DNA of 63,227 nt, counting the filler, from Collodictyon triciliatum (taxonomy: Eukaryota), in assembly GCA_043381765.1 (NCBI GenBank). It is 11 parts of 11 records of this genome, joined end to end, with 100 filler letters (N's around TTAATTAATTAA, not from the genome) between each part and the next. Parts side by side here need not be neighbours in the genome. Positions count along the whole stretch, not along the records: positions 46,064 to 51,718 come from JBHJMP010005043.1; 10 more parts are not named here. One strand, written 5' to 3'. The stretch's first letter is position 1. Every line of letters begins with the position of its first letter. Positions 45,964-54,900 of this stretch are shown piece after piece. Below the pieces are notes generated by a model that ran no database searches, was not told the origin of the DNA, and worked only from the letters and a program-made list of their open reading frames with translations. Made by a program: the position numbers and the translations under genes.

Positions 45964-46076
45964 NNNNNNNNNNNNNNNNNNNNNNNNNNNNNNNNNNNNN
46001 NNNNNNNTTAATTAATTAANNNNNNNNNNNNNNNNNNNNNNNNNNNNNNNNNNNNNNNNNNNNTCTAGTCTTAGAT

Positions 46077-46241
46077 ATGCTACGACTATATACAATGGAG
46101 GGTGAAATGCTCTTTGCTACTTTTGAAGAACTGAAAGAATACTTTGACAAACTCGAGGCATTAAGAAAAAAGGGCAGGAAGAAGAAGGGGCCGCATATGT
46201 ACGGTATCATAGAAGGGCCGGTCAGAGTTAACTTTGATTAA
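46077..46241 (+). CDS. Small basic orphan protein (54 aa from first ATG; may extend beyond contig start)
   Basis: MLRLYTMEGEMLFATFEELKEYFDKLEALRKKGRKKKGPHMYGIIEGPVRVNFD*; below the ORF-track cutoff; the frame is open back to the contig start. Confidence 0.5.
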   Translation: MLRLYTMEGEMLFATFEELKEYFDKLEALRKKGRKKKGPHMYGIIEGPVRVNFD

Positions 46242-46317
46242 CCTAATATGGTATGATTGTGTTTTTATATATTAGTTATTAGATAGAAGTCCCTGAACCA
46301 TCGATTGTATACGGCAG

Positions 46318-46347
46318 ACACTGACACTGAAATTCCAGTGTCAGTGT
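46318..46347. other. Perfect inverted repeat (12-bp stem, 6-nt loop)
   Basis: ACACTGACACTG-aaattc-CAGTGTCAGTGT. Confidence 0.9.
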
Positions 46348-46396
46348 GTGAATTTCTTGCGCTAACCCCAAACCACTTTTACTTAAAAACCTCTAT

Positions 46397-46404
46397 AAAA
46401 TTGA
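46397..46404 (+). promoter_or_regulatory. Mimivirus-type early promoter motif AAAATTGA
   Basis: Exact AAAATTGA ending 46 nt before the TVpol-helicase ATG; related motifs precede the other element genes. Confidence 0.55.
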
Positions 46405-46450
46405 AACTTTAAAAAGAGGCTTAAAAACAATTAAACATAGCTTTATAAAA

Positions 46451-48856
46451 ATGACGACTTCTATTACAAAATACGAGATATTTGACCGTACGATAGCTAA
46501 TCGCCTGCTGAAGGAAGATGACTCTATTGTGACTGCGGAAGAAAAGAAAACAATTACAAAGCTACTTCGCAAGACAAAAAAAAATCTTCTGGAGGTAAAA
46601 TACAACTACGCTAAGGGATACGAGAATCTGAAAGTAGGACGAATGTATCCAAGTGGTCTGCAATCTTTAGGTTGTATGAACGGCAATATAGTTAGGAGTC
46701 CCATGTGTGAGCAATATTATTTTGATATAGACCAAGTAAATGCGCATTACAACATTGCTTATCAATATGCTGATAAACGTGGTATTGAGTGCAAGCATAT
46801 AAAACTGTATTGTGAGAATCGAGAGGAGAGCCTAGGCAAGGTGATGGAAGATTTTGGAATAGATCGTTTCGATGCCAAGATATTGTTTTTAAAGATTGCT
46901 TACGGTGGTAATCTGCCAGATGACGTGCCTGAAATGACAAAACCAATACCTAATGAAAAGCTATTGGGGGCTCTGCCTAAATTGAAAGACGAAATGGAAA
47001 TGTTGGCTGATTATGTTTGGTTGAATAATGTGAATTGGCATAACCTTAGTGTGAAAGGACGTAAGTTGAAAGATAGTGGTCCCAATAAGAAGTTTAAAAT
47101 GTTGTCTCTATTTTTACAAACAGAAGAACGTAAAATTCTTGAGGCCATGAACAAGTACTTCACGGACCAAGGTCGGTCAGTGGACGTCCTTATTCATGAC
47201 GGGTGCATGATTCGTAAAAATGAAGGAGAACTGTGCTTTCCTCGTGAGCTGATGTATACATGCGAAGAGTTTGTAAAAGAGTTTACTGGTTATTCGGTAA
47301 AGTTGGAAGAAAAACCGATTGTGTTTGATTGGGAATTTAAAGAACAAGAAACAACGTCAAGTACTGGTTTTTGGAAGAATCATTTTATGATGAATGGCAG
47401 ACTTTTGAAGGAGAGTCCGTTGTTAGAAAGGCCTGTTGTAATATCACACCCTCAAACCTATGTAATGAAGTACAATGAAGAATTTCCTTGTCAAGCAAAA
47501 GAAATCTTTGATATGATATGCAGTTTTCCAGAACGTGAGTATGATACGTATGGGTTTCATCCGTATGGCAAAGAGTGTCCTTCGAAAGTGTACAATACTT
47601 TTAATGGTTTTGAGTGGACCAAATTATATGATCGACCCGGTAAATTGTCCAACAAAGATTATTACTCGTTGATAGAAGAAATTACCGAAAGACCTGTTAG
47701 CCTTGAGGACACACGTAACTGGAAGAATTCAAAAACAAGGTGGCAGATTGAAGACATTATGTGTCATGACGACAATCCAGAAAAAAAAAATTATAACATC
47801 AAGTACTTTATTAATATCCTGGGTAATAGATTGTTTGCCCCAACAAAGCCATGTGAGAAAGTTCTGTGTTTGAGGAATAACATGGGAGGTTCGGGAAAGA
47901 CGGGTCTCATCGAAAGAAGTTTTGCCGAAAAGTTGCTAGGAGAGGAATATTTTACTTCACAGTCATCTGCAAAGCACGTATTTGGTGACTTTAATGCAAG
48001 CATAGCATCGAAACTGTTTATTTTATGTGAAGAGGCAGAGACAAAAGACACAAAAGAATTTACTGCTAACATCAAAGCTGCAGTAACCCGTAAGCGCAAC
48101 CCTATAAGATTAATGAAGACAGACATATTCAATGAGCAAAATTATTGTGTGTACATTGCGAATACCAATAAGCAAACAGCTTTTGAGTTTGACCCAAAGA
48201 ATCACCGTCGATTCCCACAGATTGATTGTAAAGAGTATCAATTAAGTCAAGAGGAAATTAAAGTTCTAAGAGACGAAACAGATAACCCGTATTACAACAG
48301 ATTGTTTTTTGAGTACATACTGCGCATGTATGATCCCAACTTTAACTTTGAGAAACATCCAGAGACTGAATCTGTCAAGAAACTTGTAGAGCGCTATAAG
48401 GATCCATTCATACAGTTTTTTGAGATAACACTGTACCATTGGGACGACTTTTATAATGAGAAATATCGAGACCCACGCGAATTCAAAAAGTACGACCTGG
48501 ATAAAAAAGCTGAGTGGGAAATTAAAGCAGAAGAGTATTGGCAATTGTTTATTAGTATCAGCAACGATATGGTTTCAAAGAAATACGCTGAAAGTATTCC
48601 GTTTGCTTCTTTCAGACAAAACGAACATTTGTTAGATTTGATGAAAACGTATCCTTTATACTTTAAAAAAACTGTTGTGACTTACTTGAAAAAGGGTGAA
48701 ACAAAAAAACAATTAGGCACGTACTATACAATTAATCTTGGAAAGTTTCGTGAGTTTTACAATCTAGAGTTTATTTCAAAAGAAAGCATGCGAACACTCG
48801 ACGACTATGCAGAGAGTGCTGCCAAGAAACAAAAAGTTCTACATGACCAAGAATAA
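46451..48856 (+). CDS. TVpol (family A-like primase-polymerase) fused to superfamily 3 (D5-like) helicase, 801 aa
   Basis: GRMYP..SL..VR; motif A YYFDIDQVNAH; motif B RFDAKILFLKIAYGG; LFLQTEERKIL; motif C VLIHDGCMI; helicase Walker A GGSGKT, Walker B FILCEE, motif C IANTNK, arginine finger RRF. Confidence 0.88.
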   Translation: MTTSITKYEIFDRTIANRLLKEDDSIVTAEEKKTITKLLRKTKKNLLEVKYNYAKGYENLKVGRMYPSGLQSLGCMNGNIVRSPMCEQYYFDIDQVNAHYNIAYQYADKRGIECKHIKLYCENREESLGKVMEDFGIDRFDAKILFLKIAYGGNLPDDVPEMTKPIPNEKLLGALPKLKDEMEMLADYVWLNNVNWHNLSVKGRKLKDSGPNKKFKMLSLFLQTEERKILEAMNKYFTDQGRSVDVLIHDGCMIRKNEGELCFPRELMYTCEEFVKEFTGYSVKLEEKPIVFDWEFKEQETTSSTGFWKNHFMMNGRLLKESPLLERPVVISHPQTYVMKYNEEFPCQAKEIFDMICSFPEREYDTYGFHPYGKECPSKVYNTFNGFEWTKLYDRPGKLSNKDYYSLIEEITERPVSLEDTRNWKNSKTRWQIEDIMCHDDNPEKKNYNIKYFINILGNRLFAPTKPCEKVLCLRNNMGGSGKTGLIERSFAEKLLGEEYFTSQSSAKHVFGDFNASIASKLFILCEEAETKDTKEFTANIKAAVTRKRNPIRLMKTDIFNEQNYCVYIANTNKQTAFEFDPKNHRRFPQIDCKEYQLSQEEIKVLRDETDNPYYNRLFFEYILRMYDPNFNFEKHPETESVKKLVERYKDPFIQFFEITLYHWDDFYNEKYRDPREFKKYDLDKKAEWEIKAEEYWQLFISISNDMVSKKYAESIPFASFRQNEHLLDLMKTYPLYFKKTVVTYLKKGETKKQLGTYYTINLGKFREFYNLEFISKESMRTLDDYAESAAKKQKVLHDQE

Positions 48857-48875
48857 ATGACTTAGTCCACACAAT

Positions 48876-49310
48876 TTATTGATAATCGTCAGGTGTAGGT
48901 GTTGATTTGAGAGAGTAAGAAATTTTAGGGGGAGAGTCAGGAGGGGTCAGGGCTTTACGGACGCGTTCCGCAGCAGCAATCAGAGAATTAGGGCTGCCAG
49001 ATTCGAGTGAAGAGTTTAGAGAACTTGAAGAGGTTCCTGAGTAATCAACGAGGGGCATCATGGCAGGCGCTTCGACGATTTGAAATTCATGCGAGCCATT
49101 GGTTTGCTTTCTTCGTGATTTTCTATTCACGTATGACTTGTGGTTGCTTCTGCGGAGTCTCCTGGCGATTTCTACCATTTGTCGCACGGCGTCCAGGTTT
49201 TCTCCCCATTCGATAAAACACAGGTAGTTGAGTCGTGCTAGTTCTTCTCCAGTCAGCGTGCGGGTGGTCATGTCGCTCATCTGTTCTTCTCTGTTGACGG
49301 TGCGGGCCAT
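48876..49310 (-). CDS. Orphan protein (~144 aa) with S/P-rich C-terminus
   Basis: ATG at 49310 (MARTVNREEQ...) inside ORF 48876..49427; GC-richer coding-like composition; divergent from the integrase. Confidence 0.6.
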   Translation of the reverse strand: MARTVNREEQMSDMTTRTLTGEELARLNYLCFIEWGENLDAVRQMVEIARRLRRSNHKSYVNRKSRRKQTNGSHEFQIVEAPAMMPLVDYSGTSSSSLNSSLESGSPNSLIAAAERVRKALTPPDSPPKISYSLKSTPTPDDYQ

Positions 49311-49400
49311 TGTTTGCTTAAAGTACTTATCAATTATAACGTAAGGTAAAATTGTCTTTAAGCTGCGTTTTTTACACAAAAAAAAATTATTCTTTATGTA

Positions 49401-50855
49401 ATGAGCAACGCAAGCACTAGTGACCAATACAACGAGAAGCTACAGAAAAGGTACAACGAGCCAGGGCAAGTAAACAGCGTCGAAGCGATGTATCGCCATT
49501 TCAACAAAGAAATACCTCGCAGTTACATTGAGGCTTGGATGAAAAAGAATCCCTATCAACAAATTAGCAAGCCTGCTTACAAAAGCAAGGACGTGACGTC
49601 CTTCAATGTTACCGACCCAAGTTACGCCCAAATAGATTTGATCTACACCAAGGGACTTTATCCAGAAGACCATACTGGAGTGAAATACAATTATCTAATG
49701 ACATGTGTTGTGCTTTTGACACGCAAGGTGTTTTTGTATCCGCTGATTGATAAGACTCTGGCCGAAAGCAAAAAGGCTGTGCTCGAATTCAAAAAAGATT
49801 ACCCTGCGTTAAAAGTTATTCAAAGCGACAATGGCACAGAGTTCAAGTACGAGAAAGCATGGCTACAAGAACACGGCCTCAAGCAAGTCAAGTCGAGTCC
49901 GTACAACCCTACGAGTCAGGCCTATGTGGAGCGCATGAATAGTGTGGTAAAGAATAGTCTCTACAAGTACCATCAAAAGACAGGAGCTACTATTACAAAA
50001 GAAGTGCTAGAAAAAACTGCAGACAGCATTAACGATCAGCCGAATCGTGACACCGGGGTGATTCCTAACAATGCGGCCACGAAAGAAAATCTGACAAAGC
50101 TTATAGAAGCTAACCAGAAAAAATTAGACCGGTCTGCTACATCCGCTAAGGACGACTTGCTAGAAATTGGACAGCTAGTCAGGGTGAACCTGAAGAAAAC
50201 AAATTTGACAACGCAAGAGCGTAATAAATTCAAGACCAATAAAAACTGGATCCCAAAATTCACTGTTGCGTTGTTTGAGATAGTGAGCAGAGAAGTTTCA
50301 AAGGATGGCTTTAAAGCCCCGACATATAAACTGAAGGCACTGAAAGAAAGTGATAAGGAAATATTGAAGGGAAAGAAATTTCTGCGCAGAGACCTACAGC
50401 CTGTAGACAAAGACACAGACAAAGAATTTACACCAAAGGTTGATTTGCTAAAGCGTGACGCTGCTAGTGTAAAAAAGAAGAGGGGGCCGTATCTGGCTTC
50501 GAACGTACAGAGCGCTCGAGCTGACTTTGATAAGAACGTGTGGACACCAGACACAAAGAATTTCACAAACCGCACTGGCAAGAATGCTCCAAGCAAGCCA
50601 GGGCGTCAAGCTGAGCTTGATAGGCTAGAACCGAAAGTCAAGGAAGCATATGAAGCGTTTGTTACTAAACACGGAGACAATCCTAAAATGACAACGCTAC
50701 AAACTAAAAACTTTAATAAGCTAAAAAGGATTATAGGCTCTTTATTGCGAGTTCAGCCTTCGGAAGAAGTAGCTGTAAGCAAACCAATCACCGTCGAGCA
50801 AATCAAGCCGATCAAGCGTCGGAAGATGACCGTGGTTTCTTCGCAGGCCTCTTAG
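49401..50855 (+). CDS. Retroviral-like (rve) DDE integrase, Polinton/Maverick type, 484 aa
   Basis: YAQIDL (D1), IQSDNGTEF (D2), SQAYVERMN (E; 33 residues between D2 and E); Polinton-style N-terminus (YNEP..SVEAMY...IEAWM...YQQ) and C-terminal IGQLVRV...FEIV...PTYKL...FLRRDLQPV. Confidence 0.92.
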   Translation: MSNASTSDQYNEKLQKRYNEPGQVNSVEAMYRHFNKEIPRSYIEAWMKKNPYQQISKPAYKSKDVTSFNVTDPSYAQIDLIYTKGLYPEDHTGVKYNYLMTCVVLLTRKVFLYPLIDKTLAESKKAVLEFKKDYPALKVIQSDNGTEFKYEKAWLQEHGLKQVKSSPYNPTSQAYVERMNSVVKNSLYKYHQKTGATITKEVLEKTADSINDQPNRDTGVIPNNAATKENLTKLIEANQKKLDRSATSAKDDLLEIGQLVRVNLKKTNLTTQERNKFKTNKNWIPKFTVALFEIVSREVSKDGFKAPTYKLKALKESDKEILKGKKFLRRDLQPVDKDTDKEFTPKVDLLKRDAASVKKKRGPYLASNVQSARADFDKNVWTPDTKNFTNRTGKNAPSKPGRQAELDRLEPKVKEAYEAFVTKHGDNPKMTTLQTKNFNKLKRIIGSLLRVQPSEEVAVSKPITVEQIKPIKRRKMTVVSSQAS

Positions 50856-51393
50856 ATTTCTTTATCTCAGTACTGATCTCCTTAGCCAGGGCTACAAGCT
50901 CGTCTGGCTTTTTCTCTCTTTTTTGCGCTTCATCTTTGTCTTCTTCTTGAAGCATTTTTTCAACCTTGGCTACAACTTTGCGTTTCTCTGCACGGGCTGG
51001 GGCATTCTCTATATGTTTTTTCAATCCTTTTTCTCGCTTAGCCTGGTTAGCTTCATCGGACTGTCGATAAATGTCTCCAATGTCCTTTGTGTTGTTTGTC
51101 CAACTTTTGCCATAATTAGTCATACCCAATACTTTGCCTTCTTGATCTTTCCAGAGAGCGTCTCCCACTTCATTCTGAATCAGAGACACAAACCCTTGGT
51201 TGACCTTGGCTGGATATTCCTTGTCTTTGTACGTGCGAGCTTTTACTTCGTACATAATGTAGTCACCTTTCTTGAGGTCACTGTATTGAACCTTTGTGTA
51301 ATCTTTGTCGTCGGTGGGCAAGGCAGTCTTGGTCTTGGGTTTCTTGGCGTCGTCTTCGCTGGGGGTTTTGCGGACATACTTGCGGGGCGGCAT
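50812..51393 (-). CDS. Lysine-rich orphan protein, 193 aa, possible SH3/Tudor-like beta-barrel
   Basis: Clean ATG-start ORF MPPRKYVRK...; central DLKKGDYIMY...GFVS...LGMTNYGKSW..DIYRQ; 3' end overlaps the integrase by 44 bp. Confidence 0.7.
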   Translation of the reverse strand: MPPRKYVRKTPSEDDAKKPKTKTALPTDDKDYTKVQYSDLKKGDYIMYEVKARTYKDKEYPAKVNQGFVSLIQNEVGDALWKDQEGKVLGMTNYGKSWTNNTKDIGDIYRQSDEANQAKREKGLKKHIENAPARAEKRKVVAKVEKMLQEEDKDEAQKREKKPDELVALAKEISTEIKKSKRPAKKPRSSSDA

Positions 51394-51576
51394 ACTGAAT
51401 GAATGATAATGATTTTATAAAACAAACGCGTTTCAATTTACAAAAGTTGCTCGTGCCTATATACTCAGAAGATGGATATATATGGAAGGTAAGCGTTAAT
51501 TGAGGGTGTAATGTTTTGTGGTCAAGGGGCGAGACAGTATATAAACCCCTGAAATTTTGAGGTTCACAAGGTTCGC

Positions 51577-51619
51577 TGTGGAATTTGTAACTCCATAATA
51601 GATAGTTACAAATTCCACA
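51577..51619. other. Perfect inverted repeat (16-bp stem, 11-nt loop)
   Basis: TGTGGAATTTGTAACT-ccataatagat-AGTTACAAATTCCACA. Confidence 0.92.
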
Positions 51620-51828
51620 TAAATCTTATAATTTTTGAAGTGGGGCTGCCATTCACTGCGCTGGATAAAATCTTTTCCTGGGAAAATTCAGATGTTTGGA
51701 TAAATCCTTTTTCTAATTNNNNNNNNNNNNNNNNNNNNNNNNNNNNNNNNNNNNNNNNNNNNTTAATTAATTAANNNNNNNNNNNNNNNNNNNNNNNNNN
51801 NNNNNNNNNNNNNNNNNNGTGTGTGTTT

Positions 51829-51882
<54 letters not shown>

Positions 51883-51981
51883 AAGAGTGCATTAATTGCT
51901 AATTTTCTGGAAGCGAAAAGCGAACGTAATCAAAGAATATTCGTTCACAGATTCAAACTACAAGTGTTGGGCAATCATAGG

Positions 51982-54900
51982 TCACAAGCCTTTTGGCGTG
52001 TAGTAGTTGCCTTTCACAGAGTGCGCCGCACCACTGCCCAGAGTTGCTTTCAGTTCGTATGAGCCGGGTCCTGGTCCGGCCGGAGCTGTCAAATGGTGCA
52101 TTGTCAGGCCGCAAGATGATACATGGTAGCTCATTATTTAGATTATAGCGCACGTTGCTTTTGATAACTGGAAGTTTACAGTTGAGCAAACCTTCTTTCT
52201 TGGTTCTTCTTTCATACAGCGAGTAAGCTGGCGCACTTCCAAGTAATGAAGGAATCATATACTTTCCAGGGCCGGGGACATCCAGTTCTATGTTTTTTGT
52301 CATAAAAAAAAGTGGCTTATATAATTGCGATTTCAAAGCACTAATAAAATGGGTACCACGTGTGGGAAATCAGAAAGAAAAAGAAGAGAGGTATATTCGT
52401 ATACTCTTTTGAGGCGGAATGGCTTCAGATATAGTGAACGACGGCGCTGTGCCAGTTGAGTTCGGATGAGAATAAGCTCCAGGCCCGGGAGTTGAGGACG
52501 CTTTACAACATGCATTTATAAATATTTATTGTGAGCTAACTTTCGGTTTTAAACATATCACTTGGTCAGTATCGTTACCATTATTATGTCAAAAAAAAAA
52601 CCCGAATCAAGCAAACCCGAGCGACTTGGTGCACGTCCTGGCATGGAATACGCAGGTGCTTCACCAAATCTAGAGCGCAGTTGATAAGCTCCAGGTCCAG
52701 GAACATCATCGCCTACATTTCACCATAAATAAGTCTTATTGGGAAGAGAAAAAAGAGCAAGAAAAATATGATGAATAAGGTATAAACGAATAAAATATAA
52801 TTGTGAAATTATATGATTAATTTACATGGACAATTCGAAAATTGAGACCTTTTGGAGGAGGGAACTTTCCTCTTACAGAATATGTGATTACAGGGTCGGT
52901 AAACAATTGGGGGTTGTATGCTCCAGGCCCGGGTGTATACGAGTCTGATTGTTTTTTTGAGAGAAAGAATGAACTTTTAAGTGGTCTACAAGGGTTTAGA
53001 AAAAGTGTTAGTTTATATTACATTCTGTATTATTTTTCTCTAGTCTTTAAATCAACCTTCCTTTGTTGGAGAACGGCCTCGCATAGTCCAGGAGGGCCCC
53101 TCTCCAACAAAACGCGGGGCCTCATACTTTCCGGGTCCGGGCGTGTTCGTTTCTTTTGTGTTTATTGATGACAAGTAGTACCGTGAATATGTAATTATAA
53201 AATATTAATAATTATATCAGCCATCCTCCCATGTTCATGTAGTTCACTGGAAATCATAACAAGCTTACCAGTTGCGCTATTTGATTTTTGCCTCATTGTG
53301 TACGATTCTGATTGCCCTATGTGGCTGTGGCTCTCATACTTGCCTGGCCCCGGATATGATTCGCCTATATTGTGATATATTTCAATATTGATGATAAGCT
53401 ATCTCTAGAGTCATATATAAAGAGAAAAATTCACGTTTTGGGGAGCCCGGTCGGCCGTTCATCGAGTATGCTGGAGCTTGGCCAAGTTTTGCACCAATAT
53501 GGTAAGCACCAGGGCCGGGTGTTTGAAGCGCTAGCAGAAATGAGAGCGAGTAAGATAAACTAATTGTTAATACTGAGTGATTTTTCATATAATTCAAAAA
53601 GAGGAATGTTATAGATGATACATGCCATGAAAAATAGGCTGTGAAGAAAAATTGAGGAAAACAACGAAATGTAGTGCATACACAATAAAAAAAAAAAATA
53701 CATTTTTCATATGCGGAGCGTCCACTCATGGTGTGCGCTTGTGCAATTCCAAAAAGTGGGCTAATTGTATACGATGCAGGTCCTGGAGAGACTTTAATTT
53801 CGGCATCTTTTTTACGCCCATTCATAGAATATGAGGGTGCCGTCCCAAGCAAGGAGTGATGTTGATAAGCACCTGGCCCAGGCGTTTGAAATCCTAACCA
53901 TACAATTTTTTTTTAAAATTATTTCATTTCCAAAACGGCATTGTTTGATTGAGGAGAGGGAATATTTTTTTATTGTTGCACTTTTTCTGATCTAATTTGG
54001 TTACCTGATTGAGTATCTCTCTTATTTCCAAAAGTGTAAGAGTAGCTTTCTCCAATGTAGCTGATTGATTTGTATGCATCTGGAGATGGGGTCAAGTATC
54101 CTGAAAGAAAACAAAATCATACAGTGAAATTTCAGAAGAAAAATAGTTGAATGAATAAGAAATTTTCGTTCCATTAAGGACACCTCGTGTTGGTCTTGGG
54201 CGACCAGGCATTGTGAAAGAAGCCGCCTCTCCTAAACGTGACCGTATTTCATACTTGCCCGGTCCGGGAACATCATCGACTAAAAATAAAGATAAAAAAC
54301 ATACCATAACATTTGAGAAAGGCGAAATGGTTCATATCATAAAATGAATAAACCACTACATGAACTACTGAATAAAGCTAAAAGAGATGTCGATGTATAA
54401 TAAATCAACAAATAATTCGGCCTTGAACAGAATAAAGGAGAAAATGAACAAATGATTAGAATAAAAGAAAAAAAAGGGAACTTATTAGGATTTAATATTC
54501 CCAATATTTCTTAATCTATTTGCCATGTATGCAGTTCAAAATATCCAGCGTATCATATGTTAATTATTTGCCCACTTTTTAGAGTAGGTCTCTTTGCACA
54601 CATCGAATAGGCCGATGACGTCCCGATTTGAGACGGGCTTTCATACGAACCAGGTCCTGGGGTTACATGACCAGCTGCATTCCAAGGCAAATAAGAAAAA
54701 CTGTGGTTGCATCGAAACAGAAGTACAGAAATACAGAAATACAGAAATACAGAAATACAGAAATACAGAAATACAGAAATACAGAAATACAGAAATACAG
54801 AAATACAGAAATACAGAAATACAGAGAGAGAGAGTTTAAATGGTTTACGACCATTGAGGTCAATTAATTGACAGGTTTACCTTTCTTGGTAGTCCGTCGT

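Follow-up and report, generated by a model that had tools for sequence, protein, structure and literature searches.

Promoter-like signals in an endogenous polinton-like virus of Collodictyon triciliatum suggest late and probably middle-stage, rather than early, giant-virus-type gene switches

The DNA analysed here (the window, 63,227 nucleotides) comes from the eukaryote Collodictyon triciliatum (assembly GCA_043381765.1) and consists of 11 unrelated contigs of about 5.65 kb each, linked by N44-TTAATTAATTAA-N44. From the linker map and matches to the species' own genome, positions 46064..51718 (no strand assigned) were recognised as a stand-alone contig of 5,655 nt, C5043 (G000:C5043), with artificial linkers on either side. 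It holds one end of a polinton-like virus (PLV) genome, with open reading frames (ORFs) for a 54-aa protein, an 801-aa replicase, a 144-aa protein, a 484-aa integrase and a 193-aa protein. C5043 makes up that end of an endogenous PLV family's genome which holds the replication and integration genes, an identification that rests on gene content, the terminal hairpin and the many copies. The features along the contig are as follows.

46064..46067, plus strand: TCTA, its T 13 nt before the ATG of the 54-aa ORF; in sequence a late-type box whose AT-rich 5' part is lost at the contig start
46077..46241, plus strand: 54-aa ORF, conserved (15 loci), after the packaging ATPase in longer copies
46318..46347, plus strand: hairpin of 12 bp lying after the 54-aa stop and ahead of the TVpol promoter (z -6.0); possible transcript end signal
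46397..46404, plus strand: AAAATTGA, 46 nt before the TVpol ATG; 11.1 bits, 18th percentile of giant-virus early boxes; not conserved in most TVpol relatives
46420..46429, plus strand: CTTAAAAACA, YTTAAA box, conserved TVpol promoter element; 6.5 bits with the PCNA-trained giant-virus matrix
46451..48856, plus strand: 801-aa replicase, PolA-like (TVpol) N-terminal part plus superfamily 3 (SF3) helicase (Pfam DUF5906, VapE-like)
48876..49310, minus strand: predicted 144-aa ORF, divergent from the integrase (14 loci; no Pfam match)
49330..49337, minus strand: ATAATTGA, 19 nt ahead of the 144-aa ORF; weakly resembles an early box (5.9 bits) and is retained in the closest copies alone
49348..49355, plus strand: AAAATTGT, 45 nt before the integrase, without the TGA core; 4.1 bits, probably a chance site
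49353..49373, minus strand: AACGC followed by CTTAAAGA, conserved element in the promoter region shared by the 144-aa ORF and the integrase; 8.4 bits, the element's best PCNA-matrix score
49380..49393, plus strand: late-type box ahead of the integrase, an A/T run that ends in TCT; 6.0 bits, C at -9
49401..50855, plus strand: 484-aa retroviral-type (rve) integrase (Pfam rve, E 5.8e-6, below the curated cut-off; 23 loci)
50812..51393, minus strand: 193-aa lysine-rich ORF (22 loci; no Pfam match)
51424..51440, minus strand: TAAATTGA, which overlaps the palindrome AAACGCGTTT and lies 39 nt ahead of the 193-aa ORF; early-like, 5.9 bits, adjoining a conserved GCGTT
51464..51619, no strand assigned: terminal repeat ending in a 43-nt TG...CA hairpin (51577-51619; z -9.8); its flanks vary among copies
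51620..51718, minus strand: flank, a 99-nt internal piece of a 260-aa gene that belongs to a different PLV subtype, 100% identical to the intact gene on contig C3512

Replicase motifs (D-x2-N-x-H, R-x3-K...YGG, HDG and Walker) were found conserved, by eye, in an alignment of 14 relatives, and a PDB sequence search with the protein gave no match. We take the replicase to be a TVpol. The name fits the description in PMC12220804. In the assembly, 54 matches to the DNA, 44 to the replicase and 40 to the ATPase were obtained, which are matches and not copy numbers, and the family occupies at least 40 loci. It is known from partial copies, some with stop codons, and the assembled loci include no complete element. 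Beyond the 54-aa gene, 40 fetched stretches gave the order A32-type packaging ATPase, 109-aa gene, penton-like gene and fibre-like gene. The ATPase (Pox_A32, E 2e-8) lies directly before the 54-aa gene in longer copies and is truncated off C5043. The sole Pfam match of the 255-aa penton-like family is DUF5901 (E 7.7e-5, below the cut-off), and its penton label is our assumption, based on the N-terminus.

A double jelly-roll capsid gene, located off C5043, adjoins the same terminal repeat (84-88% identical) in loci L034 and L035. Its structural model (predicted local distance difference test score, pLDDT, 50.6) matched the capsids of an iridovirus, PBCV-1, Sputnik and mavirus (E 6e-13 to 1e-8), and its Atlas neighbours were viral capsid clusters; a model from a single sequence (pLDDT 30) was unusable. 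Of the terminal inverted repeats and integrase expected of a PLV, one repeat lies on C5043, the same repeat lies beside capsid genes elsewhere, and the integrase is of the rve type. Transpovirons are capsid-less episomes of about 7 kb; this identity was rejected, as family copies extend into ATPase, penton-like and fibre-like genes. Virophages proper (Maveriviricetes) have a maturation cysteine protease and a capsid of the virophage-type clade. Among the ORF families of the partial genomes examined, there was no RNA polymerase gene.

Promoter signals were examined in two sets of upstream regions. The discovery set comprised 148 upstreams from 40 stretches plus the element, reduced to 73 by removing similar ones; 20 ORFs were excluded by hand (internal starts, frames fused over N), as were upstreams shorter than 100 nt or containing N. 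For the held-out set, 20 further own-genome stretches and 60 metagenome or viral loci yielded 209 assigned ORFs, 137 trusted starts and 43 non-redundant upstreams, unlike one another and unlike all discovery regions. A search with a single TVpol protein found no related loci in metagenome and viral contigs, and alignment queries were needed. Related regions were thinned by a score cut-off and not by a tree, which leaves the counts partly dependent on one another. The initial choice of PLV motifs and windows was made by eye and followed by tests on the held-out loci and with matrices trained on giant viruses. The giant-virus loci, which carry no taxonomic classification, were RPB10 genes as positive control (120 starts, 81 non-redundant, two Pfam-checked), capsid genes (144 fetched, 140 with a start, 72 non-redundant) and PCNA genes (24 loci, 22 with a start, four Pfam-checked). 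The host control was small: 21 starts of histone, tubulin, proteasome, Ras and E2 genes, 17 of them non-redundant, the ubiquitin-conjugating and Ras searches giving few usable starts. Tubulins and repeats of the host suggest a protist with flagella.

Before the structural genes, the signal was a box close to the start codon. An A/T run ending in TCT, with the T at -15 to -11, was present in 19/73 discovery upstreams (0.9 expected; 1.7 if only the last 30 nt were shuffled) and in 13/43 held-out ones (0.6 and 0.8), with a peak at -13, compared with 0/17 host upstreams. The wider form W8-T[AC]T at the same position was found in 28/73 and 18/43. When the giant-virus capsid upstreams alone were searched for motifs, W8-TCT-N10-TATAA was recovered in 63/72, in agreement with the Megamimivirinae late motif of PMC11464507. 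As an observation apart, its occurrence across these capsid genes (L236-L379) is far wider than the few viruses for which it has been described. A matrix of the first part of the motif, built from the 63 giant-virus sites, matched 17/30 discovery and 19/36 held-out PLV structural upstreams (2.4 and 4.0 expected), and 24 of those 36 matches had the C at exactly -12. Elsewhere it matched 5/12 integrase-type, 1/20 TVpol, 0/6 144-aa and 0/21 host upstreams. A T at -1 was seen in 47/66 structural upstreams vs 0/21 in the host, and relatives of the 54-aa gene have an AT-rich run ahead of the TCT, such sites mostly scoring below 5 bits with the giant-virus matrix. The position of the box recalls the TCTA motif of Cafeteria roenbergensis virus (CroV) and mavirus. 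A splice-acceptor reading of W8-TCT was rejected because, by eye, many sites lack an AG before the ATG. TGCG, the late motif of Bodo saltans virus (BsV), was enriched before integrase (4/11) and 193-aa genes (6/11); it was not equated with the BsV motif because it is hardly enriched before structural genes (2/23) or giant-virus capsid genes (8/72 vs 3.3 expected, within the shuffle range).

The replication genes carried a different box. At -55 to -20 of the discovery upstreams, YTTAAA was found before 14/15 TVpol genes (2.8 expected), 6/6 144-aa genes and 7/11 193-aa genes, and before 1/23 structural genes; in the held-out set it preceded 4/5 TVpol genes (0.9 expected). AACGC or its complement often stood beside it (20/48 vs 4.4 expected; 5/6 of the 144-aa discovery upstreams), and the GCGTT element occurred in 7/11 193-aa upstreams. 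The looser YTAAAR, for which no shuffle was made, was present at -58 to -18 of 30/31 TVpol genes from very distant clades. Giant-virus PCNA starts showed the same word in 13/19 cases (3.2 expected), one with AACGC ahead. The matrix trained on PCNA upstreams matched 17/20 TVpol genes (13/15 discovery, 4/5 held-out), 6/6 144-aa genes, 5/12 193-aa genes and 0/12 integrases, whereas PLV structural genes (7/66), giant-virus RPB10 (9/81) and giant-virus capsid genes (9/72) were all at or below their shuffles. When viral contigs were scanned for AACGC plus TTAAAAAC, 101 stretches came up, and three of the 80 listed were on giant-virus bin (GVMAG) contigs; the result was uninformative.

Gene ends pointed in the same direction as the starts. 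Stems of at least 11 pairs followed the stop codon in 21/127 genes (0.9 expected) and lay inside 0/91; they belonged chiefly to TVpol (7/16 ends), fibre-like and capsid genes, although a few were low-complexity DNA. The convergent gene ends of the C5043 copy showed no significant hairpins. These post-stop stems resemble the hairpin rule of mimiviruses (PMC5871332). Host upstreams looked different: leaders were C/A-rich, TATAWA was present within 400 nt in 17/21 (8.2 expected), in most cases at a distance of 135-185 nt from the ATG, and there was no excess of YTTAAA (8 vs 7.7 expected).

The preliminary description of this DNA had proposed instead that the octamer AAAATTGA, the early promoter of Mimiviridae, drives the genes of the element. 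The four sites it listed do lie 46, 19, 45 and 39 nt before the TVpol, 144-aa, integrase and 193-aa starts, and AAATTGAAAC and TTTATAAAA are common to the TVpol and 193-aa upstreams; the offset of TTTATAAAA, however, differs between them (-9 vs -28). Only one site of the four is an exact match. A site with at most one mismatch in all four regions arose in 1/5000 shuffles of the last 70 nt, so that the early-like sites are jointly unusual in the C5043 copy; the mismatch tolerance and the 70-nt window were set after the sites had been seen. Over the whole window the exact octamer shows no enrichment (11 occurrences vs 14.2 expected). The example of a host intron near 52838 does not serve as context, because the window joins unrelated contigs and that position is not element flank. 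With an early matrix trained on half of the RPB10 genes, which recovered 39/40 of the other half, only the TVpol site of the four scored as giant-virus early boxes do; the remaining three (5.9, 5.9 and 4.1 bits) were at or below the 2nd percentile of the RPB10 control.

Across homologues, the positional enrichment that the proposal called for was absent. The exact octamer at -80 to -23 was found in 2/73 discovery upstreams (0.6 expected) and 0/43 held-out ones; at -60 to -40, one-mismatch forms numbered 3/73 (4.1 expected). Among non-redundant replication-module genes the exact word preceded 2/50, vs 54/81 giant-virus RPB10 genes, and the early matrix matched 2/20 TVpol, 3/12 193-aa, 1/6 144-aa and 0/12 integrase upstreams. 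Therefore, the early box is not the promoter of the family. The shorter AATTGA occurred within 100 nt of 13/43 replication-module genes (2.6 expected) and 0/23 structural genes, scattered from -99 to -8, and in apparent intergenic DNA of 12/48 replication genes (4.3 expected) vs 1/33 structural ones, with 3/43 in the held-out set (3.6 expected); by eye, several of these words encode Gln-Phe in a short, unannotated ORF of the opposite strand. WWWWWTGW, a motif used in PMC11502894, was seen in 26/73 upstreams of all genes vs 24.0 expected and before 8/15 TVpol genes vs 3.2. Copies with about 85% identity retain the adjacent AACGC-TTAAA element and lack the integrase and 144-aa octamers. The 193-aa counterpart of TAAATTGA is an exact octamer scoring 9.8 bits in two close copies, where it survives beside different upstream DNA. 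The early octamer may thus be a sporadic box before the TVpol and 193-aa genes of this sub-lineage, and is at most a lineage-specific extra one. As first written, the early-promoter claim would repeat the case of the PLV Gezel-14T, and it fails for the family; the likeness to giant-virus promoters persists through the other motifs and the 3' hairpins, which are unlike those of the host.

Taken together, giant-virus-type transcription signals (late box, YTTAAA and hairpins) are well supported by the sequence comparisons, and suggest gene switches that resemble the late, and probably the middle-stage, rather than the early promoters of giant viruses, with a giant virus turning the PLV on. Dependence on a giant virus is likely because W8-TCT and YTTAAA match matrices trained on giant viruses and neither marks host genes. 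Post-early, helper-driven transcription of the PLV in a giant-virus factory is rated no more than reasonably probable. Integrated copies would remain silent until a giant virus infects the cell; presumably without an RNA polymerase of its own, the PLV would be transcribed in the factory of the co-infecting virus. Post-early factors of the helper would first read the YTTAAA promoters of the replicase, the 144-aa gene and part of the 193-aa genes, and then the W8-TCT promoters of capsid, penton, ATPase, fibre and often integrase genes. Replication and packaging would take place only during giant-virus infection, and the integrase would return progeny genomes to the chromosomes via the TG...CA ends. 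The promoter motif is shared with giant viruses in general and is not tied to one helper. A more specific version is offered tentatively and with some doubt: YTTAAA(R)A with its AACGC companion would be the intermediate-stage promoter of Imitervirales-type giant viruses, and the PLV would run a two-step programme on helper machinery, intermediate for the replicase and late for the particle, some lineages having an additional early box ahead of TVpol.

Several points weigh against this interpretation. The full 26-column late matrix matches 1/66 PLV structural upstreams, because the TAT lies 12 nt after the TCT (13 in giant viruses) and overlaps the ATG. A second PCNA scan of 15 loci added five new ones, none with YTTAAA and two with YTTAAR, and the training set was small, 24 upstreams in which two of the five new ones, unlike PCNA, were retained. 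The PCNA matrix reaches 5 bits in 8/21 host upstreams vs 7.1 expected and is therefore not a sharp test on host DNA. Only seven of the held-out non-redundant upstreams belong to replication genes. Most mimivirus replication genes are classed as intermediate (PMC8400408), and PCNA would presumably be intermediate in these uncultured giant viruses too. Helper dependence is read from sequence, and some PLVs replicate without a helper.

YTTAAA is, moreover, a TATA-like word that a host TATA-binding protein (TBP) could read. Control could thus be mixed, with the genes for replication and integration transcribed in the nucleus by host RNA polymerase II (Pol II) from this word, and the late machinery of a giant virus required by the structural genes alone. 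Besides the resemblance to a TBP site, this would fit T/C-rich words, similar to initiators, that were seen by eye close to -10 of several 193-aa and 144-aa starts, and an endogenous giant virus has been described whose genes include a host-like and a virus-like set (10.64898/2026.10.09.758095). We nevertheless regard mixed control as unlikely, since host TATAWA lies far from the ATG, host upstreams show no YTTAAA excess, giant-virus PCNA genes are marked by the same box, and hairpins are present at the TVpol ends. Less credence still is given to the element's genes being driven by AAAATTGA, as in Gezel-14T. The four near-matches of the C5043 copy, the 11.1 bits of its TVpol site, the intergenic AATTGA and the early box before 6/19 giant-virus PCNA genes, by which double promoters exist, would favour it, but the early matrix that recovers RPB10 selects few PLV genes, no exact octamer occurs in the held-out set, and part of the AATTGA signal is coding. 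An autonomous nuclear PLV, using host Pol II and a virus-coded regulator such as the 144-aa or 193-aa protein, with the promoter likeness due to shared ancestry or AT-rich convergence, is held to be just as improbable. Helper-independent PLVs exist, the late-motif spacing is one base off the giant-virus consensus, and the marker searches of the assembly suggested earlier (Capsid_NCLDV and VLTF3) came back empty, neither with a positive control, and are no evidence either way. Against autonomy, two separate giant-virus-trained matrices select matching gene classes, and leaders of at most about 10 nt would set the PLV apart from the host.

The family also showed signs of mobility and recombination. 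The flank at 51620 is, judged from its identity to the 260-aa gene, a nested insertion site of a PLV in a PLV; environmental contigs continue past this position with other sequence, and flanks of the terminal hairpin in other copies include host-like genes, e.g. Roco and kinase. In L016 (2419-2951) and L035 (4361-4615), the same 260-aa gene carries an insertion at a distance of about 24 nt, bordered on each side by GGGGC; this is possibly a 5-bp target duplication, the two ends being on different contigs, and a PLV-in-PLV target preference is possible. The replicase appears swapped (46240-48894) between copies in the same slot, whose neighbours are 85-97% identical and whose TVpol genes are only about 30% identical; an environmental contig has 2733 other letters in its place. 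Ahead of the 193-aa promoter, two close copies differ in the cassette they carry, about 460-520 nt in length (L020, 3035-3554; L022, 6258-6722) and flanked by a direct repeat of 10 nt, the AAATTGAAAC word itself (cf. window 51430-51439). In one subtype (L016, L018, L023, L035) the terminal hairpin arms also contain AAATTGAAAC; those of the C5043 copy differ. The integrase ORFs of L036, L037, L050, L051, L052 and L054 start late, with a short ORF or integrase-like codons upstream in another frame, possibly reflecting a frameshift or a split start.

Other observations concern neighbouring sequences. In IMG/VR, a 12.9-kb contig of the PLV family (L175) and two more distant TVpol contigs are placed in giant-virus bins, through co-binning or mis-binning. 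Roco-like intron-free genes, a very large family with frames near 600 aa, were among 165 Ras-family matches in the assembly (G000), one of them beside a PLV end (L034). The next, unrelated contig of the window (51819-54000) holds a host gene with PGPG repeats and short introns, presumably akin to flagellar STPG/Shippo repeats.

Compared with known systems, late-type promoter sharing has a precedent in mavirus and EMALE04, and early-type sharing in Gezel-14T. Gezel-14T (PgVV-14T), a PLV dependent on Phaeocystis globosa virus (10.1101/2022.07.28.501842), resembles the Collodictyon PLV in its TVpol, A32 ATPase and capsid genes and in a promoter shared with giant viruses, also before TVpol. It differs in its early AAAATTGA motif and tyrosine recombinase, whereas the Collodictyon PLV encodes an rve integrase and is, for the most part, without the early motif, the enrichment known from Gezel-14T being absent by both the exact-word and early-matrix counts given above. 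The PolA(TVpol)-SF3 helicase PLVs of protists (PMC12220804) share the replicase type, the rve integrase, many integrated copies and module swapping; their nested inserts are retrotransposons, whereas here another PLV is the target, and the main text of that paper does not contain the word 'promoter'.

Mavirus and EMALE04 of Cafeteria burkhardae carry the CroV late motif (PMC8547959, PMC10945749) and are alike in having integrated copies, an rve integrase, an AT-flanked TCT(A) near the ATG and, possibly, a 5-bp target duplication. Mavirus, however, is a virophage with a family-B polymerase, while the Collodictyon PLV has a TVpol-helicase, a free fourth base after TCT and another box for its replication genes. 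Harm to the helper or protection of the host is known for EMALE04 and Tetraselmis PLVs. With the Megamimivirinae late motif [AT]8T[AC]TN4[AT]5[AG]TA[TG]A and 3' hairpin rule (PMC11464507, PMC5871332), the PLV shares the first half, W8-T[AC]T, and hairpins after stops; its second half is one base closer and overlaps the start codon.

No PCNA-type or TTAAA-type giant-virus promoter was found described in the literature text searched, which covered neither figures, supplements nor subscription papers, and motif logos in PMC8547959, PMC12126595, PMC11502894 and 10.64898/2026.07.28.741278 may touch on the novelty of the TTAAA link. A 2017 review states that no intermediate promoter had been described in mimiviruses (PMC5294985); if the proposal is right, YTTAAA(R)A would supply that motif, and would also be a candidate for how virophage genes are timed, a control so far hidden (PMC11464507). 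Class-specific promoters matched from sequence to giant-virus gene classes would offer a way to predict both helper dependence and timing in PLVs, the box common to PLV replicases and giant-virus PCNA genes being a testable candidate for a middle-stage promoter.

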